This document shows positions 11,702 to 19,934 of a DNA stretch of 64,000 nt, piece after piece. How positions within the stretch are numbered: the first letter of the stretch is position 1; the number at the start of each line of letters is the position of its first letter. The notes under the pieces are model-generated. The model did no database searches. It was not told the origin of the DNA and worked only from the letters and a program-made list of their open reading frames with translations. The position numbers were made by a program, and so were the translations under genes. Origin of the DNA: Bacilli bacterium (lineage in GTDB: Bacteria > Bacillota_I > Bacilli_A > RFN20 > CAG-826); contig JAKSUL010000002.1 of NCBI GenBank assembly GCA_024409055.1, positions 20,217 through 84,216 of the forward strand, in the 5' to 3' direction.

Positions 11702-11750
11702 AAGAAAACCTCCTACTATTCAATAGGAGGAAATCTTCAAAAAAGGGCAA

Positions 11751-11966
11751 TTAACCTAACGGTCCTTCTTTATGTTCGATAACTTTTTTGATGCGGCTAT
11801 TGAAGGCGTCCCTGTCGAGCATGATGACATTTCCACATCCAAGGCATTTGATTTTGATATCAGCGCCGACGCGGACTATTTGGAATTGTTTGCTCTTAGC
11901 AAAGCAAGGATGAGGCTTTTTCATCTCCACCACATCGAAGAGGTCATAATGCGGTATTTCTACCAC
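11751..11966 (-). CDS. DUF951 family protein
   Basis: DVVEMKKPHPC...RVGADIKIKCLGCG. Confidence 0.85.
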   Translation of the reverse strand: MVEIPHYDLFDVVEMKKPHPCFAKSKQFQIVRVGADIKIKCLGCGNVIMLDRDAFNSRIKKVIEHKEGPLG

Positions 11967-13579
11967 GGCATGTCCTCCATCTTGACGGCAGCCGGAACTT
12001 TTGGAAGCCCTGGCATCGTCATGATTTTGCCAGTGAGCGGGACAATGAAGCCGGCTCCGGCGGACAAATTCACTTCACGGATAGTGATGGTGAATCCTTT
12101 TGGAGCACCGAGAACTTTTGGATCATCGGATAAGGACTGTGGAGTCTTGGCCATACAGATGAAGGAATCTCCGTATCCCATTTCGGTATAGAGTTTGATC
12201 TGCTCTTCGGCCTTTTCGGTGTAAACGACGTCTTTGGCGCCGTAGATGTTCTTGCAGATGGTTTCGATCTTTTCCTTAACCGGGAGCTTAAGATCGTAAA
12301 TCGGATGGTAATTGGATTGTTCTTCGTCGAGGGTTTTCTTGACGAGTTCGGCAAGCTCAATGGATCCTTCACCACCTTTGATGAAGCCATCGAGGAAGGC
12401 CACTTTGTATCCTTTTTCTTCGCACCACTTCCTAAGGCAGGCGACTTCTTTTTCTGAATCGCTTCCGAAGTGATTGATGGCGACGACAACCGGCAAGCCG
12501 TATTTCTTGATGTTCTCCAAATGGACTTCGAGGTTCGGAAGTCCTTTTTCCAAAGCTTCGACATCTTCTTTGGCCAAATCTTCAAAAGCGAGGCCTCCGT
12601 GCATCTTTAAAGCCCTGATGGTGGCAACCATGACGACAAGGTTCGGCTTGATACCAGCGGCGCGGCACTTGATATCGAGGAATTTTTCGGCGCCTAAATC
12701 GGCGGCGAATCCGGCTTCGGTAATGGTAATCGGGGCAAGTTTTAAGGCGAGTTTTGTGGCGATGATGGAATTGCAGCCGTGGGCGATATTAGCGAAAGGT
12801 CCGCCATGGACGAGAACCGGATTGTTCTCAAGAGTCTGAACGAGGTTTGGCTTCAAAGCTTCCCTCATGAGTTTCATGATGGCGTGGCTGATATTCAATT
12901 CGTTGACAGTAACCGGTTTGCCATCTTTGGTATAGGCAACAATTATGCGACGGACTCTATTAACGAAGTCGTTCTCGTCTTTGGCTAAGCAAAGAATAGC
13001 CATCATTTCAGAGGCGACGGTGATGACGAATTCATCGTGACGTGGCTCTCCTTTTGGATCATCTTGCCCAACGGTGATGGAACGAAGAGCCCTATCGTTC
13101 ATATCCATGGCCCTTTTCCAAACGATTCTATTAGGATCGATGTTTAGGGGATTTCCTTGGTAAATAGAGTTATCGATAATGGCGGAGATAAGATTGATTG
13201 AGGAGGTCAAGGCGTGCATGTCTCCGGTGAAGTGGAGATTGATGTCTTCAGACGGCCCGATAGAGGCAAGTCCTCCGCCTGTGGCGCCACCTTTAATTCC
13301 GAAAACCGGTCCAAGGGAGGGTTCTCTCAAAGCGAGCATGGCTTTAACGCCAATGCGTCCGAACCCTTCGGCAAGAGCGATAGAGGTCGTGGTTTTTCCT
13401 TCTCCGGCTTTCGTCGGGGTAATCGCGGTAACCAAAACAAGCTTTCCGTTTTCTTTATCCTTGAGGGTTTCCATCAAAGGGGCGACGTCGATTTTGGCTT
13501 TTAATTTGCCATATGGTTCGACGAACTCTGGGGCAATGCCGGCTTTTTCGGCGATTTTATTAATTTCTATTAGGGCCAT
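11960..13579 (-). CDS. fhs: Formate--tetrahydrofolate ligase
   Basis: TAITPTKAGEGKTTT, KGGATGGG, HGGPFANIAHG, TMPGLPK. Confidence 0.97.
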   Translation of the reverse strand: MALIEINKIAEKAGIAPEFVEPYGKLKAKIDVAPLMETLKDKENGKLVLVTAITPTKAGEGKTTTSIALAEGFGRIGVKAMLALREPSLGPVFGIKGGATGGGLASIGPSEDINLHFTGDMHALTSSINLISAIIDNSIYQGNPLNIDPNRIVWKRAMDMNDRALRSITVGQDDPKGEPRHDEFVITVASEMMAILCLAKDENDFVNRVRRIIVAYTKDGKPVTVNELNISHAIMKLMREALKPNLVQTLENNPVLVHGGPFANIAHGCNSIIATKLALKLAPITITEAGFAADLGAEKFLDIKCRAAGIKPNLVVMVATIRALKMHGGLAFEDLAKEDVEALEKGLPNLEVHLENIKKYGLPVVVAINHFGSDSEKEVACLRKWCEEKGYKVAFLDGFIKGGEGSIELAELVKKTLDEEQSNYHPIYDLKLPVKEKIETICKNIYGAKDVVYTEKAEEQIKLYTEMGYGDSFICMAKTPQSLSDDPKVLGAPKGFTITIREVNLSAGAGFIVPLTGKIMTMPGLPKVPAAVKMEDMPW

Positions 13580-13610: not shown

Positions 13611-14303
13611 TTACCTATATTTATCTTTTAGTGTATTGATAACTACCGAAGCCATTGTCAATCCAGCGGCGCTTGGAACCATCATCATCGACGAAGGCAC
13701 CATTCCTTTTTTAACAGGAAGTTCGGTTGAGCAAACAACTTTTATCGAAGCTAAGCTCAATCCGTTTTTTCTGAAGACACTCCTTATCTTTTTAGCAAGA
13801 GGGTCATTTTCCGTTTTGGACAAAGGCATAACGGCGATCTTTGTCGGGTCAAGCCTATTGGCCATTCCAAGCGACATGATGAGCGGGATGCCGTTTTCGG
13901 TGCAGTGTTTGGCTAAAGCCAATTTCCCTTCGACATCATCGATCGCATCCACGACATAGTCACAATCTTTAAGGTGGAATTCTTCGAAGAACTCAGGGCT
14001 GATGCGGGCAAAGACTTTCTCAATATCGGTTTTCTTATTTATCGTTTTCAGCCTCTTGGCGGCAACATCCGTTTTTCTTTTTCCAACATCTTTGGAGGTA
14101 TAAAGAATCTGTCGGTTGAGGTTGGTGACATCGACTTTGTCACAGTCGATTATTTTCAAGGAACGAACGCCAGACCTAAGAAGACATTCAGCAGCCGTTC
14201 CGCCCACTCCGCCTAAACCGATGACGGCGACTTTGCAGTTGAACAAGGATTTAACCTCATCGTTTCCTATTAATAGAGCGGATCTCTCGAACATATCACT
14301 CAT
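13611..14303 (-). CDS. tcdA: tRNA threonylcarbamoyladenosine dehydratase (ThiF/E1-like)
   Basis: IGLGGVGG, TNLNRQ, DYVVDAID, DPLAKKIR, VPSAAGL. Confidence 0.85.
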   Translation of the reverse strand: MSDMFERSALLIGNDEVKSLFNCKVAVIGLGGVGGTAAECLLRSGVRSLKIIDCDKVDVTNLNRQILYTSKDVGKRKTDVAAKRLKTINKKTDIEKVFARISPEFFEEFHLKDCDYVVDAIDDVEGKLALAKHCTENGIPLIMSLGMANRLDPTKIAVMPLSKTENDPLAKKIRSVFRKNGLSLASIKVVCSTELPVKKGMVPSSMMMVPSAAGLTMASVVINTLKDKYR

Positions 14304-15168
14304 GGTTTAAGTCCTCCATTATCTCTTCTATCGAAGACACGTTTTTGGCGTTGAATTGGTGGCGGAAGAACGTTTCCTGCCTCTTTATGTAATGCCTCGT
14401 CGCATCTTTGATTGTTTGTTTTGCTTCGTCCAAAGTAATTTCCTTATCGAAGTAAGGGAAGAATTCCTTCACTCCAATCGCTCTAAAAGCATGTGGTTCA
14501 CGCCCATACTTATTCACAAGGGTCGTTACTTCGTTTTCGATTCCGATCTCAAACATTTTATCGACTCTAGCTTCAACGCGTTCGTATAGAGGCTTCCTCT
14601 CCATCGATAAGGCATAAAATCTCGTTTCGAAGATCGGCTCATGGTTTTGTTCATCAATCAATTCGCTTTTAGGTTTGCCATTAGCCAGGCATATCTCAAT
14701 AGCCCTTTTAACCCTAATGCGATTATTCATGTGAATCTTCTTGGCCTCAAGAGGATCAAGTTTCTCGAGTTCCTTATGAAGATCTTCGTTGGTTAGAAGC
14801 TCATATTTGCTCATATCCACCGAAACGGATGGCTTGAACTCATAGTCGTATAAACCGGCCCTGATATATAAACCGGTTCCTCCCGCGATTATCGGCGTCT
14901 TCCCACGAGATAAGACATCCTTGATCGTTCTTCTAAGGTCTTCTTGGTACTGACTGACGTCATAATCCTTCGTCAGAGGAACGAAAGAGAAGAGATGATG
15001 AGAGACTTCTTTCATCATTTGCTCAGTCGGTTTTGCCGTAGCAATCGATAGTTCTTCATACACCTGAAAAGCATCGGCGTTGATTATTTCGCCATCGATT
15101 CGTTTCGCTAATTCAATGGCGAGGTCACTTTTTCCAGATCCGGTTGCGCCGGTGATAACAATGATCAT
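14296..15168 (-). CDS. miaA: tRNA dimethylallyltransferase
   Basis: GATGSGKS, NADAFQVY, GGTGLY, TRHYIKRQ. Confidence 0.95.
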   Translation of the reverse strand: MIIVITGATGSGKSDLAIELAKRIDGEIINADAFQVYEELSIATAKPTEQMMKEVSHHLFSFVPLTKDYDVSQYQEDLRRTIKDVLSRGKTPIIAGGTGLYIRAGLYDYEFKPSVSVDMSKYELLTNEDLHKELEKLDPLEAKKIHMNNRIRVKRAIEICLANGKPKSELIDEQNHEPIFETRFYALSMERKPLYERVEARVDKMFEIGIENEVTTLVNKYGREPHAFRAIGVKEFFPYFDKEITLDEAKQTIKDATRHYIKRQETFFRHQFNAKNVSSIEEIMEDLNHE

Positions 15169-16907
15169 TTAAGGCCTTCCGTAATTTCTTTTAAAAGAGA
15201 TTCAACGTCGTCGTGTAAAGCGGCGTAGTTATGAATCAAAGGATGCTCCTCATACTCTTTCATGAGGGACGCATACTTTTCTTTTGCAATTTTATGTGCT
15301 TCGTCATCAACAACCTTTGAAGCCAAATCCCTTTGGGCGGCTTCGATATCTTTTCTTAAAGCGATTAGGCTTTCATCTTCGTCGATTGCCTTGCTAACGC
15401 TCAAAAACTCTTTGATGAGAGGGTCTTTAAGAAGGTTTTCTTTAAAGGCCTTAGCCTTGATGATAAGAGGGTCTTCAACCAATTCTCCAATCATAGAGAA
15501 AGCGTGGTCTTCGATGATTTTGACATCCACTATTTCGCCCTTCAAATACGACGGGCCTCTAAAGTTGATCAATTTGCTGTTCTCGGTATATCCAGATAAC
15601 ATCGTTTCATCTTTTTTAGAAGGTCCATCAACCAAAACTTTATACGTCTTTCCGACCATGGTTTTACTATGGGACATTACGCCCGATTCAATAACCTTCA
15701 AAAGGCGATTGAACCTTTCGTGTTTATCTTCGTCGGAAACGTTATCCGCGATCGCCGCGGCCGGCGTTCCTTTTCTCGGAGAGTAGATGAACGTGAAAGC
15801 GGCGTCGTATTTAACTTCTTCACACAAAGTGAGGGTGTCTTCGAATTGCTCGGCGGTCTCGTTCGGAAAGCCGACGATGATATCGGTCGTTAAAGCGACG
15901 TCCGGAATTCTTTCCCTGATGTTTTTAACAAGGGCCAAGTATTCTTCCCTTGTGTATCTACGGCCCATGAGGCGAAGCATCTCGGTTGATCCAGACTGAA
16001 CCGGGAGATGAATGCATTTCATGATATTTGGGTATTTGGCGATGATATCGATCATCTCCAAAGAGAAATCCCAAGGATGAGAGGTCATGAAACGGAGACG
16101 GGCAATTCCGAGTTTAGCGACTTCTTCCAAAACTGTCGCGAAGCTCGTCCCGTCTTTGAAGTCTTTGCCGTAACTATTTACGTTTTGCCCTAATAGGGTG
16201 ATTTCCTTGTATCCAGCTTCAATCAGTTCTTTGCATTCTTTGAGAATATCCTCCAAAGGACGGCTTCTTTCGCGACCTCTTGTATATGGAACGATGCAAT
16301 ATGTGCAGAACTTATCGCAGCCATACGAAATATTGACAAAAGCCTTATACGGATCGTTTCTTTTCGCCGGCAAATCTTCGATGATGTCTCCCGCAAAAGA
16401 ATGGATATCCACGATGGTTTTATGTCTTTCGACCGACTCGGCTAATAAATCAAGGAGATCGGGAACGTTATGGGTTCCGAAAATCAAAGTGATATGAGGA
16501 TAAGAGGCCAATAACTTTTGGGCCACTCCTTCCTCTTGCATCATGCATCCGCAGACGGCGAGCATGAAATCTTTGTTGGCTTTTTTGTTGGCTTTGAATT
16601 TGCCGATTTCACCATAGACTTTATCTTCGGCGTTTTCCCTGACGGCGCACGTATTGATGATGACTAGATCGGCTTCTTTCTCAACTGTGGTTTTTGTAAA
16701 ACCAGCAAGTTCAAGAAGGCCCGCCATCGTCTCTTCATCACGCACGTTGCCCTGGCAGCCAAATGTTTTGATTAGGTATTTCTTTCCTTTTGCGAACGAA
16801 GAAAGAGACGGAGCGACTGTTTTCTCTCCACGAATGAGTTTGGCTTTTTCGACGCGGCTCCTGGCGAGTTTCATCTCGGGGAGCGACTTTATTACGCAAC
16901 GACCCAT
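15165..16907 (-). CDS. miaB: tRNA-2-methylthio-N6-dimethylallyladenosine synthase with a C-terminal YlbF/YmcA(RicA)-like extension
   Basis: TFGCQGN, NTCAVRENAE, GCDKFCTYC radical SAM motif, TRAM domain ending GELVE, then ~100 aa helical domain ending EHPLIHNY...LLKEIT. Confidence 0.93.
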   Translation of the reverse strand: MGRCVIKSLPEMKLARSRVEKAKLIRGEKTVAPSLSSFAKGKKYLIKTFGCQGNVRDEETMAGLLELAGFTKTTVEKEADLVIINTCAVRENAEDKVYGEIGKFKANKKANKDFMLAVCGCMMQEEGVAQKLLASYPHITLIFGTHNVPDLLDLLAESVERHKTIVDIHSFAGDIIEDLPAKRNDPYKAFVNISYGCDKFCTYCIVPYTRGRERSRPLEDILKECKELIEAGYKEITLLGQNVNSYGKDFKDGTSFATVLEEVAKLGIARLRFMTSHPWDFSLEMIDIIAKYPNIMKCIHLPVQSGSTEMLRLMGRRYTREEYLALVKNIRERIPDVALTTDIIVGFPNETAEQFEDTLTLCEEVKYDAAFTFIYSPRKGTPAAAIADNVSDEDKHERFNRLLKVIESGVMSHSKTMVGKTYKVLVDGPSKKDETMLSGYTENSKLINFRGPSYLKGEIVDVKIIEDHAFSMIGELVEDPLIIKAKAFKENLLKDPLIKEFLSVSKAIDEDESLIALRKDIEAAQRDLASKVVDDEAHKIAKEKYASLMKEYEEHPLIHNYAALHDDVESLLKEITEGLK

Positions 16908-16909
16908 AG

Positions 16910-17701
16910 TTATTTTCCTTTCTCCGATCTGATGTTGATTGGCTCAATATGAATGGCCAATCCGGTTTCTTCATCGATTTCGATGAAAGCTCCGCAAATG
17001 ATAGTATCAGCCTCTTCCTCAATTTGGAAACGACTATTCTCATTTCCGTAGACAACTTTGTCTACGACCGACTTCTTTTCGAAGCCAATAACCGAATCAT
17101 ACGATCCGCACATTCCGACGTCACACATGAAGGCGGTTCCTCCAGGGAGAATCCTGGCGTCATTAGTTTGAACGTGGGTATGAGTTCCCAAAAACGCAGA
17201 CACCTTCCCATCGAAAGCATAAGCAAGTGATTGCTTTTCCGAGGTTGAATCGGCATGGAAATCAACGATATGGATAGCGACGTGCTCTTCTTTATCGATG
17301 TTGGTTAGAGCCGCTAGAGGACTTTCGACCTGCTCTTTCATAAAAGCTTGGCCCAAAACATTAGTGACCCTGACCTCATAGCCGTTCACGTCATATATCG
17401 CCGAACCAACCCCATGATAATAGTTGAGGATGTTTACGGGGCGGATCAATTGGTCATAGTCGTCTATATAGTCGTCAATCTGCTGTTTGTCGTGCCAATG
17501 GTTTCCCAAAGTAACGACATCGATTCCAGCATCGAGGAGATCGTTTAAATCCTTTTCGGTTAAGCCGCGACCTTTTGATACGTTTTCGCCGTTAGCTATC
17601 ACTAAATCGGGTTCGTATTTTCTCCTCAAAGTAGGCAAAAGGGAGGACACGGCCGTTAAGCCGATCCTCCCAACAATGTCTCCAAAAAATAGGATGTTCA
17701 T
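16910..17701 (-). CDS. ymdB: YmdB family 2',3'-cyclic phosphodiesterase (TIGR00282)
   Basis: GDIVG, NGEN, TLGNH, DFHADSTSEK, GTHTHVQT. Confidence 0.93.
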   Translation of the reverse strand: MNILFFGDIVGRIGLTAVSSLLPTLRRKYEPDLVIANGENVSKGRGLTEKDLNDLLDAGIDVVTLGNHWHDKQQIDDYIDDYDQLIRPVNILNYYHGVGSAIYDVNGYEVRVTNVLGQAFMKEQVESPLAALTNIDKEEHVAIHIVDFHADSTSEKQSLAYAFDGKVSAFLGTHTHVQTNDARILPGGTAFMCDVGMCGSYDSVIGFEKKSVVDKVVYGNENSRFQIEEEADTIICGAFIEIDEETGLAIHIEPINIRSEKGK

Positions 17702-17728: not shown

Positions 17729-19294
17729 TTATTTAGCGGTCTCGACGGCCCTGTATTCGCGAATGACGGAAACTTTGATTTGTCCCGGATAAGTCATCTC
17801 GCTCTCAATCTTGTCTTTAACTTGCTGGGCAAGGACGACAGCCTGAGAGTCGTTGATCTTTTCCGGAATGACCATGATGCGGATTTCGCGGCCGGCCTGG
17901 AGGCTATAAGCCTGCTGGACGCCGTCGAATTCCTTGGCGATCGTTTCAAGCTGCTCGATTCTCTTGATGTAGGTCTCAAGGGTTTCGCTTCTGGCACCCG
18001 GACGGGCGGCAGAAAGGGTATCAGCGGCGTGAACAAGGTTAGAGATGATGTACTTGGCCGGATAGTCTCCGTGGTGGCTTTCGATGGCGTTGATGACAAC
18101 GTCCGGTTCGCCATATTTACGAGCAAGCTTAGAGCCAAGCTCAACGTGGCTTCCTTCCATCTCGAAGTCGATGGCTTTTCCGATATCGTGGAGCAATCCT
18201 GCTCTCTTGGCTAAAGACTGGTCTAAGCCAAGTTCAGCCGCCATGATTCCGGTGAGATAAGCAACTTCCATAGAGTGGTCGAGACCATTTTGTCCATAGG
18301 AGGTTCTGTAGTGAAGGCGTCCGATGTAGTTGACGAGTTCGCGATTGATGCGCGGAAGGCCAAGTTTGAAGCAGGCTTCTTCACCATACTTCTGAGTGGA
18401 TTCTTCGACTTCTTTTTTGCATTTAGCGACGACTTCCTCAATGCGTCCTGGCTGGATGCGTCCATCTTTAACCAAGTGTTCAAGGGTGCGTCTGGCGATT
18501 TCGCGGCGGATCGGATCAAAGCAGGAAACGGTGATGACTTCTGGAGTGTCATCGACGACGAGGTCAACGCCAAGCTGAGTTTCCAAAGCGTGGATGTTGC
18601 GACCTTCACGTCCGATGATGCGTCCCTTCATCTCATCGCTTGGAAGAGCGACGACGGAGACGGTTCTTTCAGTGGTGACGTCTTGCGCGTATTTGGCACA
18701 GGCAAGAGATAAGAGATCGGTGGCTTTGGCCTCGGCAGTAGCCTTGGCTTCGTCTTCCTGGTTCTTGATGTAAGCAGCGATTTCGACGGCCATCTTGGAC
18801 TCGACGCGAGCCATGATTTCGTCGTGGGCTTCTTTAACGGAAAGGCCGGAGACCTTTTCGAGTTCGGCGATGATAGAATCGATTTTCTTGTCGAGTTCCT
18901 CTTCCTTGACTTCGTAGCTATGAATCCTAGCGTCGAGAGATTCGCTCTTGCGGTCGAGGGTGTTCTCCTTTTGGGAAAGGGCGGCTTCCCTTTGAGCAAA
19001 GGCTTTTTCCTTCAACGAGAGGTTCTGTTCAAGAGCGGCGATTTCACCCTTGCGGACTCTGACATCGTTGTCGGCTTGCTGCCTAGCTTCGAAAGCGGCT
19101 TGCTTGGCGTCGATTTCGGCGTTTTTGACAATCCTTTCGGCTTTGATTTCGGCATCTTTAATAATGCCTTTGGCACTCTTTTGAGCGCTCGTGGTCTTAT
19201 TCTTGTTCAACAAGAACATGACGAGAATGGCAACTCCTGCGCCAACAGCGAGAGTGATTATGGCGAGGATCCATTCGAACGGTTGTTCAAACAT
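17729..19294 (-). CDS. rny: Ribonuclease Y
   Basis: N-terminal TM, coiled coil, KH motif KGRIIGREGRNI, HD motif LLHDIGK. Confidence 0.97.
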   Translation of the reverse strand: MFEQPFEWILAIITLAVGAGVAILVMFLLNKNKTTSAQKSAKGIIKDAEIKAERIVKNAEIDAKQAAFEARQQADNDVRVRKGEIAALEQNLSLKEKAFAQREAALSQKENTLDRKSESLDARIHSYEVKEEELDKKIDSIIAELEKVSGLSVKEAHDEIMARVESKMAVEIAAYIKNQEDEAKATAEAKATDLLSLACAKYAQDVTTERTVSVVALPSDEMKGRIIGREGRNIHALETQLGVDLVVDDTPEVITVSCFDPIRREIARRTLEHLVKDGRIQPGRIEEVVAKCKKEVEESTQKYGEEACFKLGLPRINRELVNYIGRLHYRTSYGQNGLDHSMEVAYLTGIMAAELGLDQSLAKRAGLLHDIGKAIDFEMEGSHVELGSKLARKYGEPDVVINAIESHHGDYPAKYIISNLVHAADTLSAARPGARSETLETYIKRIEQLETIAKEFDGVQQAYSLQAGREIRIMVIPEKINDSQAVVLAQQVKDKIESEMTYPGQIKVSVIREYRAVETAK

Positions 19295-19463: not shown

Positions 19464-19934
19464 CTAGAAAGATATAGGAGAAACTTCGGCAAGAGAAAAG
19501 ACGAAGTACGTGGATGCGAAACTCGTTTGATTTATTCCAAAATCGATATGATATTCGGTGTTTTGCAATAACTTAGAGTACCCGAAAAAGTAGACTTTAT
19601 AGTCTGTGTAGTATATTCCGCCGCCAGGATAAAATGCCGAGCTGTTGTTTTTGTTCGTGGCCTCAAGGTCGAAGCGGCAATATTCGACTTCTTGAATCTG
19701 ATAATGGAAAGCGACGTAATCGCCTTTGTTGCAGTGGAGGTCGGCATTAATGATCAAATAATCGCCATCACAAGACAAAGAATTAACCTTAACCGTGTTT
19801 TCGTCTTTGTCAGTGATGGTCTCCCCCACTCTAAATTCACTATGTGGATCGATCATCGAAAAACTCGTCTGGTTTCCGCAAGAAACTAGAAGTAGGCACG
19901 ATGATAAAGCTAAGAGCAGAGAACGTTTATTCAT
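19464..19934 (-). CDS. Hypothetical lipoprotein
   Basis: Signal peptide with lipobox LVS-C; no recognised domain. Confidence 0.7.
   Translation of the reverse strand: MNKRSLLLALSSCLLLVSCGNQTSFSMIDPHSEFRVGETITDKDENTVKVNSLSCDGDYLIINADLHCNKGDYVAFHYQIQEVEYCRFDLEATNKNNSSAFYPGGGIYYTDYKVYFFGYSKLLQNTEYHIDFGINQTSFASTYFVFSLAEVSPISF

Follow-up and report, generated by a model that had tools for sequence, protein, structure and literature searches.

The fused miaB::ricA gene

The stretch of DNA analysed here (the window) comprises 64,000 nucleotides of a Bacilli bacterium (assembly GCA_024409055.1, contig JAKSUL010000002.1, positions 20,217 to 84,216 of the forward strand), and on its minus strand lies a gene in which miaB and ricA (ymcA) share a single open reading frame (ORF) (Table 1). 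In most Bacilli miaB and ricA are two neighbouring genes; in this uncultured gut bacterium and its relatives they make one protein. Behind the end of the TRAM domain (...IGELVE) the frame stays open into DPLIIKAKAF..., the DNA of the junction reading GGA GAA TTG GTT GAA GAC CCT (G474 E L V E D P480), and the first stop is the TGA that closes the ricA part. The initial annotation, made from the letters of this DNA alone, had described an in-frame fusion of MiaB with a YlbF-family tail of about 100 residues without an intervening stop, and this was borne out, as the Com_YlbF family (PF06133) matched with 32.7 bits in the full protein and with 37.0 bits when the last 111 residues were searched alone, against a gathering cut-off of 23.9. 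That comparison, a survey of the fusion in related genomes and a search for ricF and ricT elsewhere in the genome were among the checks it had named, and all three came out in its favour, as did its placing of rny and ymdB just upstream on the same strand.

The MiaB part of the fused ORF is complete and has all six Fe-S cysteines. The MiaB equivalog model TIGR01574 (NCBIfam) scored 528.1 bits against a cut-off of 355.3 and was covered over its positions 1-437, and in a 50-sequence alignment the auxiliary-cluster cysteines C51, C87 and C121 of the UPF0004 domain and the CxxxCxxC motif of the Radical SAM core (C197/C201/C204) were invariant. The full-length AlphaFold2 model had a predicted local distance difference test (pLDDT) of 88.5 and a predicted template modelling (pTM) score of 0.82; its MiaB body matched PDB entries 7MJV-7MJZ with template modelling (TM) scores of 0.89-0.90 normalised to the target (E about 1e-45). 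The MiaB part is apparently active as the methylthiotransferase that makes 2-methylthio-N6-isopentenyladenosine at tRNA position 37 (ms2i6A37). In the same model the last TRAM strand spans residues 472-476 and the first RicA helix (480-494) begins about three residues past it. The start at 16907 was favoured over the Met12 chosen by the gene caller, because an SLP-x-M-x-x-AR motif N-terminal to Met12 is conserved in relatives; in their alignment P10, A15 and R18 of the N-terminal motif are invariant or nearly so.

Table 1. Features of the miaB::ricA locus in window coordinates.
Feature	Position	Strand	Details
Fused miaB::ricA	15165..16907	minus	580 residues plus TGA stop at 15165-15167 (ORF list)
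UPF0004 methylthiotransferase domain, residues 43-144	16476..16781	minus	PF00919, 97 bits
Radical SAM core, residues 191-361	15825..16337	minus	PF04055, 106.8 bits
TRAM domain, residues 415-477	15477..15665	minus	PF01938, 48.4 bits
Fusion junction, codons E478-D479-P480 (GAA GAC CCT)	15468..15476	minus	window DNA compared with ten unfused relatives
RicA (YmcA)-like module, residues 479-580 (102 residues)	15168..15473	minus	five helices, PF06133
Com_YlbF (PF06133) match, residues 484-577	15177-15458	minus	Pfam
rny (RNase Y), first gene of the co-directional run	17729..19294	minus	Pfam RNase_Y_N, KH, HD
ymdB	16910..17701	minus	Pfam YmdB, 307 bits; 2 nt before the start of the fused gene
miaA (i6A37 synthase, makes the substrate of MiaB)	14296..15168	minus	Pfam IPPT, 247 bits
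ThiF-family gene (thiF/tcdA-like)	13611-14303	minus	overlaps miaA by 8 nt
fhs	11960-13579	minus	after the ThiF-family gene
DUF951 gene	11751-11966	minus	after fhs
Terminator-like hairpin	11709..11730	minus	consensus scan, prediction

Conservation of the fusion

A continuous frame of this kind could also arise if, in a metagenome-assembled genome (MAG), a base had been missed where two separate genes meet; the genome is a draft of 87 contigs, and one member of the genus, G011, has both parts out of frame. Against this, a whole-genome PF06133 survey found the Com_YlbF match within a single frame of 577-652 residues in 35 of the 36 other species-level genomes of the genus. The 18 fused genes extracted from the genus are each one ORF with the junction GEL-x-x-DP-hydrophobic, and in an alignment of 21 fused homologues the GEL-x-x-DP junction is kept, so that the motif is conserved at the protein level. 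The sister genus represented by G118, of the same family as the window, is fused with the same junction, GELVGDPLIYKAK. The best 120 homologues in a collection of 5.8 billion proteins, which come from several independent sources, are all 569-583 residues long, and 118 of them carry a precomputed PF06133 match; they are named only 'MiaB', and the MAGs they derive from are labelled Bacilli, Mollicutes, Erysipelotrichaceae or Candidatus Enteromonas. Neither is there a start codon from which the tail could be made independently (see below). Since the same open frame recurs in 35 of 36 genomes of the genus and in all 120 best homologues, chance or an assembly or sequencing error is effectively excluded; we consider such an artefact vanishingly improbable and rejected it. 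The fusion is genuine and inherited, and it is fixed in two genera.

The RicA tail is under purifying selection. The ratio of nonsynonymous to synonymous divergence (dN/dS) in the tail was 0.03 between G004 and G021 (dS 0.51, the only unsaturated pair), 0.15 between G015 and G016, and 0.25-0.6 between more remote genomes with a high or saturated dS; dS exceeded 1.2 in all pairs but one.

Identity of the C-terminal module

The initial annotation had called the tail RicA/YmcA-like, and we indeed find it closer to RicA (YmcA) than to RicF or YheA by sequence profile, predicted fold and gene position. A profile built from 20 fused tails and 7 free short homologues scored 37.0 bits against B. subtilis RicA 6PRH (E 3.5e-8) and 36.2 bits against YmcA 2PIH, compared with 20.4 bits against RicF 6PRK_A and 17.7 bits against the YheA-like SP1372. 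AlphaFold2 modelled the tail as five helices with a pLDDT of 96.5, and in a Foldseek search RicA chains ranked 1-3 (6PRK_B, TMq 0.76; 2PIH, 0.74; 6PRH, 0.67), followed by RicF (0.73) and by structures of the DUF964/YheA type (0.56-0.62). The fused tail also takes the place of the free ricA of relatives, the start of which falls between -8 and +3 of the miaB stop. Its identity to B. subtilis RicA is about 20%. The tail has diverged too far to share 5-mers with other sequences, and a word-indexed homology search with it alone recovered nothing beyond the protein of the window itself. When the tail was run against PDB as a single sequence, only chance coiled-coil matches came up, so that a profile was needed.

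The tail contains no cysteine and ends directly after the helical domain, without a C-terminal tail, and no conserved cysteine was found among 22 fused tails. In B. subtilis, C141 at the C-terminus of RicA ligates [4Fe-4S] cluster 2 (PMC6751060). The tail as a donor of Fe-S ligands was rejected, as it has zero cysteines.

Origin of the fusion from overlapping genes

We compared miaB-ricA loci at 80 sites in reference genomes. A separate ricA after miaB, which the initial annotation had cited for B. subtilis, was found free and 3' of miaB in dozens of Bacilli loci. In Bacillaceae and Staphylococcaceae it encodes a RicA of about 140 residues with an STGGD...GETGS...C tail and starts 0-3 nt past the miaB stop. 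The closer relatives of the window have a tail-less RicA of about 96-105 residues, the ATG of which lies 8 nt inside miaB, as in ...GGAGAATTAGTAAATGACTAATTT..., and at the site of the junction unfused relatives carry ATGACTAA, in which the ATG of ricA overlaps the stop of miaB; the overlap of 8 nt was read in ten of them. A free ricA overlapping the miaB stop is the ancestral state, and it is still present in sister genera and families. At E<=1e-10 the tail profile retrieved 230 cluster representatives, of which 150 were listed, mostly with a length of about 103 residues; this library of representatives at 50% identity is poor for counting fusions, since fused proteins collapse into few clusters. 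On the sequences compared, the short, cysteine-less RicA predates the fusion in this order and is widespread. A RicA without the cluster-ligating cysteine is the norm in a large branch of Bacilli, which means that the cluster-2 picture from B. subtilis is not universal.

Loss of one base within the ATGACTAA overlap would bring both frames into register. The product of such a deletion, GELVND-NFDEEL..., is in register with the observed GELVED-PLIIKAK, and the fusion would join GELV-x-D straight to residue 3 of RicA and onward, with no linker gained. We infer from these alignments that a one-base deletion in the overlap was the origin of the fusion. No start codon (ATG, GTG or TTG) is present in the window at the old ricA start position, where relatives start ricA, which makes internal translation of the tail unlikely; it is probably produced only within the fused protein.

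In the unfused relatives L008, L010-L014, L017 and L020 the sequence GGAGAA, which encodes the conserved Gly-Glu at the end of TRAM, precedes the overlapping ricA ATG by about 9 nt. There GGAGAA probably serves as coding sequence and as the ricA Shine-Dalgarno sequence at once.

RicF and RicT in the genome and genus

The genome has exactly two YlbF-family genes, the fused tail and one 121-residue ORF, plus one RicT. The 121-residue ORF is RicF-like, with two C-terminal cysteines, and lies upstream of rsmD-coaD, surroundings which we take to be those of B. subtilis ylbF; since it is the sole other Com_YlbF gene, the fused tail is the only RicA candidate of the genome. RicT (NF041131, 257.7 bits), encoded downstream of holB, has both CxxxxCC motifs and all six conserved cysteines, and all 21 high-quality genomes searched in the genus have a RicT. 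RicF and RicT are both retained across the genus. The RicF C-termini of the genus carry 0-2 cysteines, mostly one, often in K-C-G-G-K, and none in G018; the extraction of these ORFs (loci L107-L122; L001, 1471-1836) was heuristic and incomplete, with several loci missing. Cluster 2 of B. subtilis uses two RicF cysteines together with C141 of RicA. This ligand set does not look conserved in the genus, and a B. subtilis-style cluster 2 is doubtful here.

These observations bear on whether the tail is still a Ric subunit at all. The short, cysteine-less 'RicA' could be a MiaB-specific helical appendage, serving for example in dimerisation or in tRNA handling beside the TRAM domain, with RicF and RicT acting alone. 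It lacks the C-terminal segment and the cysteine that are required in B. subtilis for cluster 2 and for RicT contacts (PMC6751060), it is only distantly identical to B. subtilis RicA, the RicF of the genus has few or no C-terminal cysteines, the short free form makes up a large subfamily of its own, and the ricA part lies between miaB and miaA, which encode consecutive enzymes of one tRNA pathway. We nevertheless hold such a repurposing to be very doubtful: two YlbF-family genes plus RicT are just what makes up a minimal RicAFT system, in profile and in fold the tail is still nearest to RicA, above all to the chain of it in the RicA-RicF crystal complex, and retention of RicF across the genus is hard to explain if its heterodimer partner is gone.

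One protein of the representative library, P0116 (266 residues), has two tandem YlbF-like domains, each with a cysteine-containing tail (...GCGPS... and ...GGCCG), and may be a single-chain RicA-RicF-like fusion.

Gene neighbourhood

The fused gene is flanked on one side by the genes of RNase Y and YmdB and on the other by that of the enzyme which makes the substrate of MiaB. The gaps are 27 nt between rny and ymdB and 2 nt between ymdB and miaB::ricA, and the miaA ATG overlaps the stop of the fused gene by 4 nt (ATGA). The miaA gene also lies 3' of the free ricA in the relatives L010, L012 and L029, and 3' of the fused gene in G118. For the ThiF-family gene the top NCBIfam match was TcdA (ct6A37 synthase), with 139 bits under a cut-off of 304. 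The hairpin behind the DUF951 gene is the only terminator-like site on the minus strand from rny to the end of the run, which suggests that rny-ymdB-miaB::ricA-miaA-thiF/tcdA-like-fhs-DUF951 is one predicted transcription unit. Within it (13611-16907, minus strand) miaB::ricA, miaA and the ThiF-family gene are three successive genes of tRNA position-37 chemistry with overlapping stops and starts. Between recA and rny lies a 156-residue ORF (19464-19934, minus strand) with a lipoprotein-like signal (LLVSCGN) and without a Pfam match.

Recurrence of the fusion and co-occurrence of miaB and ricA

In a maximum-likelihood tree of 57 MiaB cores the genus of the window together with L006, L007 and G118 forms the main fused clade (support 100/99). 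Other genera of the window's family are unfused (G069, G070, G104, G142 and G153). L009 is fused and its sister is the unfused L029 (100/100), and G057, fused with a different junction (GEVAVDKEVKK), is surrounded by unfused sequences only, with both genes separate in eleven further genomes of its family. The tree shows that the fusion arose independently at least three times (in the main clade, in L009 and in G057) and was possibly reversed once.

Co-occurrence of the two genes was followed in a class-wide sample of 91 genomes. In family f12, which comprises only 10 genomes with one MiaB-negative among them, all four MiaB-positive genomes searched for Com_YlbF have one such gene directly 3' of miaB and a second copy elsewhere, and the MiaB-negative G102 has a single, cysteine-less YlbF-family copy. 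The adjacent pair occurs in three MiaB-positive genomes of family f19, whereas G123 of this family, which is MiaB-negative, is without any YlbF-family gene. In this small sample RicA tracks MiaB where RicA exists, and MiaB does not need RicA.

At the Erysipelotrichaceae-type loci L027, L028, L030, L034, L039, L045, L047, L058 and L084 a metallo-beta-lactamase/RNase J-like gene of about 555 residues replaces ricA after miaB.

Functional interpretation

We argue, at about even chances, that the fusion hard-wires a pre-existing association of MiaB with RicA, a reading that draws on the synteny, the recurrent fusion and the two co-losses. The fusion would fix in cis, and at a ratio of 1:1, an association which other Bacilli would achieve through translational coupling. 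The RicA module would keep its role as the helical partner of RicF and would dock RicF and the Fe-S protein RicT beside the TRAM (tRNA-binding) end of MiaB, without being an Fe-S ligand itself. RicT would still be passed on to RNase Y, a hand-on that stays feasible because the final complex with Rny in B. subtilis contains RicT and neither RicA nor RicF (PMC10470536). Candidate benefits to MiaB would be resupply of cluster or sulfur, redox gating, or a coupling of tRNA modification to RNase Y processing.

The initial annotation had offered two roles for the fusion. The first, a Rosetta-stone link between ms2i6A37 modification and RNase Y, has gained circumstantial support from the three or more independent fusions and from the co-loss with miaB, while a neutral fusion explains much of the same data. 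The second, a tail serving as an Fe-S accessory, is weakened, for the tail has neither a cysteine nor a C-terminal segment with C141, and the cysteine-less form predates the fusion.

Genes that are adjacent and coupled often become fused. The one-base deletion may have merged two co-translated and functionally independent genes, after which both halves would keep unrelated jobs, MiaB modifying tRNA and RicA serving RNase Y together with its partners RicF and RicT, and the fusion would persist because it is harmless. We take this as a serious possibility, somewhat on the improbable side. The 8-nt overlap allows fusion in a single step, and the junction costs only the first two residues of RicA and gains no linker. 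G011 has apparently split again with both parts retained, and families f9 and f11 have MiaB without any YlbF-family gene. The hand-off model does not require RicA to leave the cytosol (PMC10470536), so that a tether to MiaB could be tolerable. Neutrality leaves unexplained, however, why miaB-ricA adjacency is kept across very distant Bacilli (Bacillaceae, Staphylococcaceae and this order). A 55-kDa enzyme within 3 residues of the first RicA helix would moreover be expected to disturb an unrelated RicA-RicF-RicT assembly; the fusion has been retained through two genera with mostly saturated synonymous sites and arose at least three times, and the adjacent ricA is gone together with miaB in G102 and G123.

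Several observations weigh against the proposed hard-wired association. The evidence of co-loss comes from those two genomes only. No Com_YlbF gene was found in the MiaB-bearing families f9 and f11 or in G081, so MiaB does not generally need RicA, and the control genome of Lactococcus lactis has Com_YlbF and PSP1 matches and no MiaB match, so some YlbF-family function is independent of MiaB. The tail is less conserved than the enzyme it is attached to, mean pairwise identity being 0.32 in the tail and 0.70 in the MiaB part. In G011, which is nested in the fused clade, MiaB ends GELA* and the RicA part (MDENDPVIL...) lies in another frame, at about 1988-2335 of locus L106 (G011:C28:31700-34400), where it reads MDENDPVILAAK... 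and has a Met of its own. Either G011 has lost the fusion secondarily or its MAG contains a frameshift error, and unless the latter holds the covalent MiaB-RicA link is not indispensable. The C-terminal tail with the cluster-2 cysteine, by which a RicA may be recognised, is absent from the fused tail. Given that absence and the 0-2 C-terminal cysteines in RicF of the genus, the RicAFT model from B. subtilis may not transfer to this lineage. Finally, the recurrence of the fusion may reflect opportunity and not selection, as overlapping genes are mutationally easy to fuse.

MiaB is a radical-SAM enzyme that destroys its own cluster, the auxiliary cluster being its sulfur source. A wider proposal is that the general, and perhaps original, job of RicA in Bacilli is that of a MiaB accessory subunit, which through RicF and RicT would support or gate methylthiolation and would also link the ms2i6A37 state to RNase Y-dependent mRNA processing; RicF and RicT would, for example, resupply the auxiliary cluster, the sulfur source that MiaB consumes, or sense the redox state. 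We regard this proposal as unlikely. If it is true, the fusions of gut Bacilli would be a Rosetta stone for the link between tRNA modification and RNase Y; if the fusion is neutral, it is an ordinary case of overlapping genes merging. A MiaB::RicA protein that is fixed in whole genera and has arisen at least three times is the simplest genomic hint of two proteins acting together, and it is a ready-made construct for asking whether a radical-SAM enzyme of this self-destroying kind is served by the Ric Fe-S complex. For specialists in Ric, RNase Y or radical-SAM enzymes it is a useful lead that can be tested.

Comparison with known systems

The miaB-ricA pair was noted in 2010 as conserved across Bacilli, with a functional relationship called 'unclear' (PMC2952846); its synteny was later described as 'fairly well conserved' (PMC6751060), and in B. 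subtilis the two ORFs 'appear to be translationally coupled' (PMC10470536). Our full-text searches, in which coverage of likely synteny papers was incomplete, found no paper describing a MiaB-RicA fusion, and the main text of the B. subtilis crosslinking/AlphaFold interactome papers makes no mention of MiaB or RicA. To our knowledge, RicA has since that first report been studied only within the RicAFT/RNase Y system. The fusion therefore joins two known families in a form that we did not find described, and databases call its products simply MiaB.

The nearest counterpart is the ymcB (miaB)-ymcA (ricA) pair of B. subtilis, with the same two families in the same order and coupled translation; it consists of two genes where the window has one polypeptide, and its RicA, of about 140 residues, has the STGGD...GETGS...C tail, whereas the RicA part of the window has about 100 residues and is without that tail. 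With the RicAFT complex (YmcA-YlbF-YaaT; PDB 6PRH, 6PRK and 2PIH) the tail of the window has in common the helical YlbF fold (TMq 0.67-0.76), and the same genome encodes RicF and a RicT that keeps its six conserved cysteines. RicA of that complex pairs with RicF as a heterodimer, assembles with RicT at 1:1:1, and is required for RicT and RNase Y to form their complex. The window differs in having no equivalent of C141, and with the few C-terminal cysteines of RicF in the genus cluster 2 could not be ligated in the same way; the N-terminus of RicA, free in the B. subtilis system, is here attached to an enzyme of 478 residues.

The MiaB of Bacteroides uniformis (7MJV-7MJZ) is the structural template onto which residues ~43-478 of the window's protein model, at 41-42% identity, and the six Fe-S cysteines and the TRAM domain are present in the window's protein as well. 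The solved B. uniformis protein ends after TRAM, whereas that of the window adds the 102-residue helical domain and also has an N-terminal extension of about 40 residues, which is common in Bacilli. The sixth match in the fold search with the full-length model was PDB 9A6D, which we know by title only ('Integrative model of MTAB-YVFG by crosslinking MS and deep learning'); no discussion of it turned up in the papers searched. MtaB-YvfG, a paralogous methylthiotransferase with a partner, is a possible precedent for accessory subunits of methylthiotransferases; it differs from MiaB::RicA in the enzyme (MtaB), in the family of the partner, and in that the two proteins are associated non-covalently.

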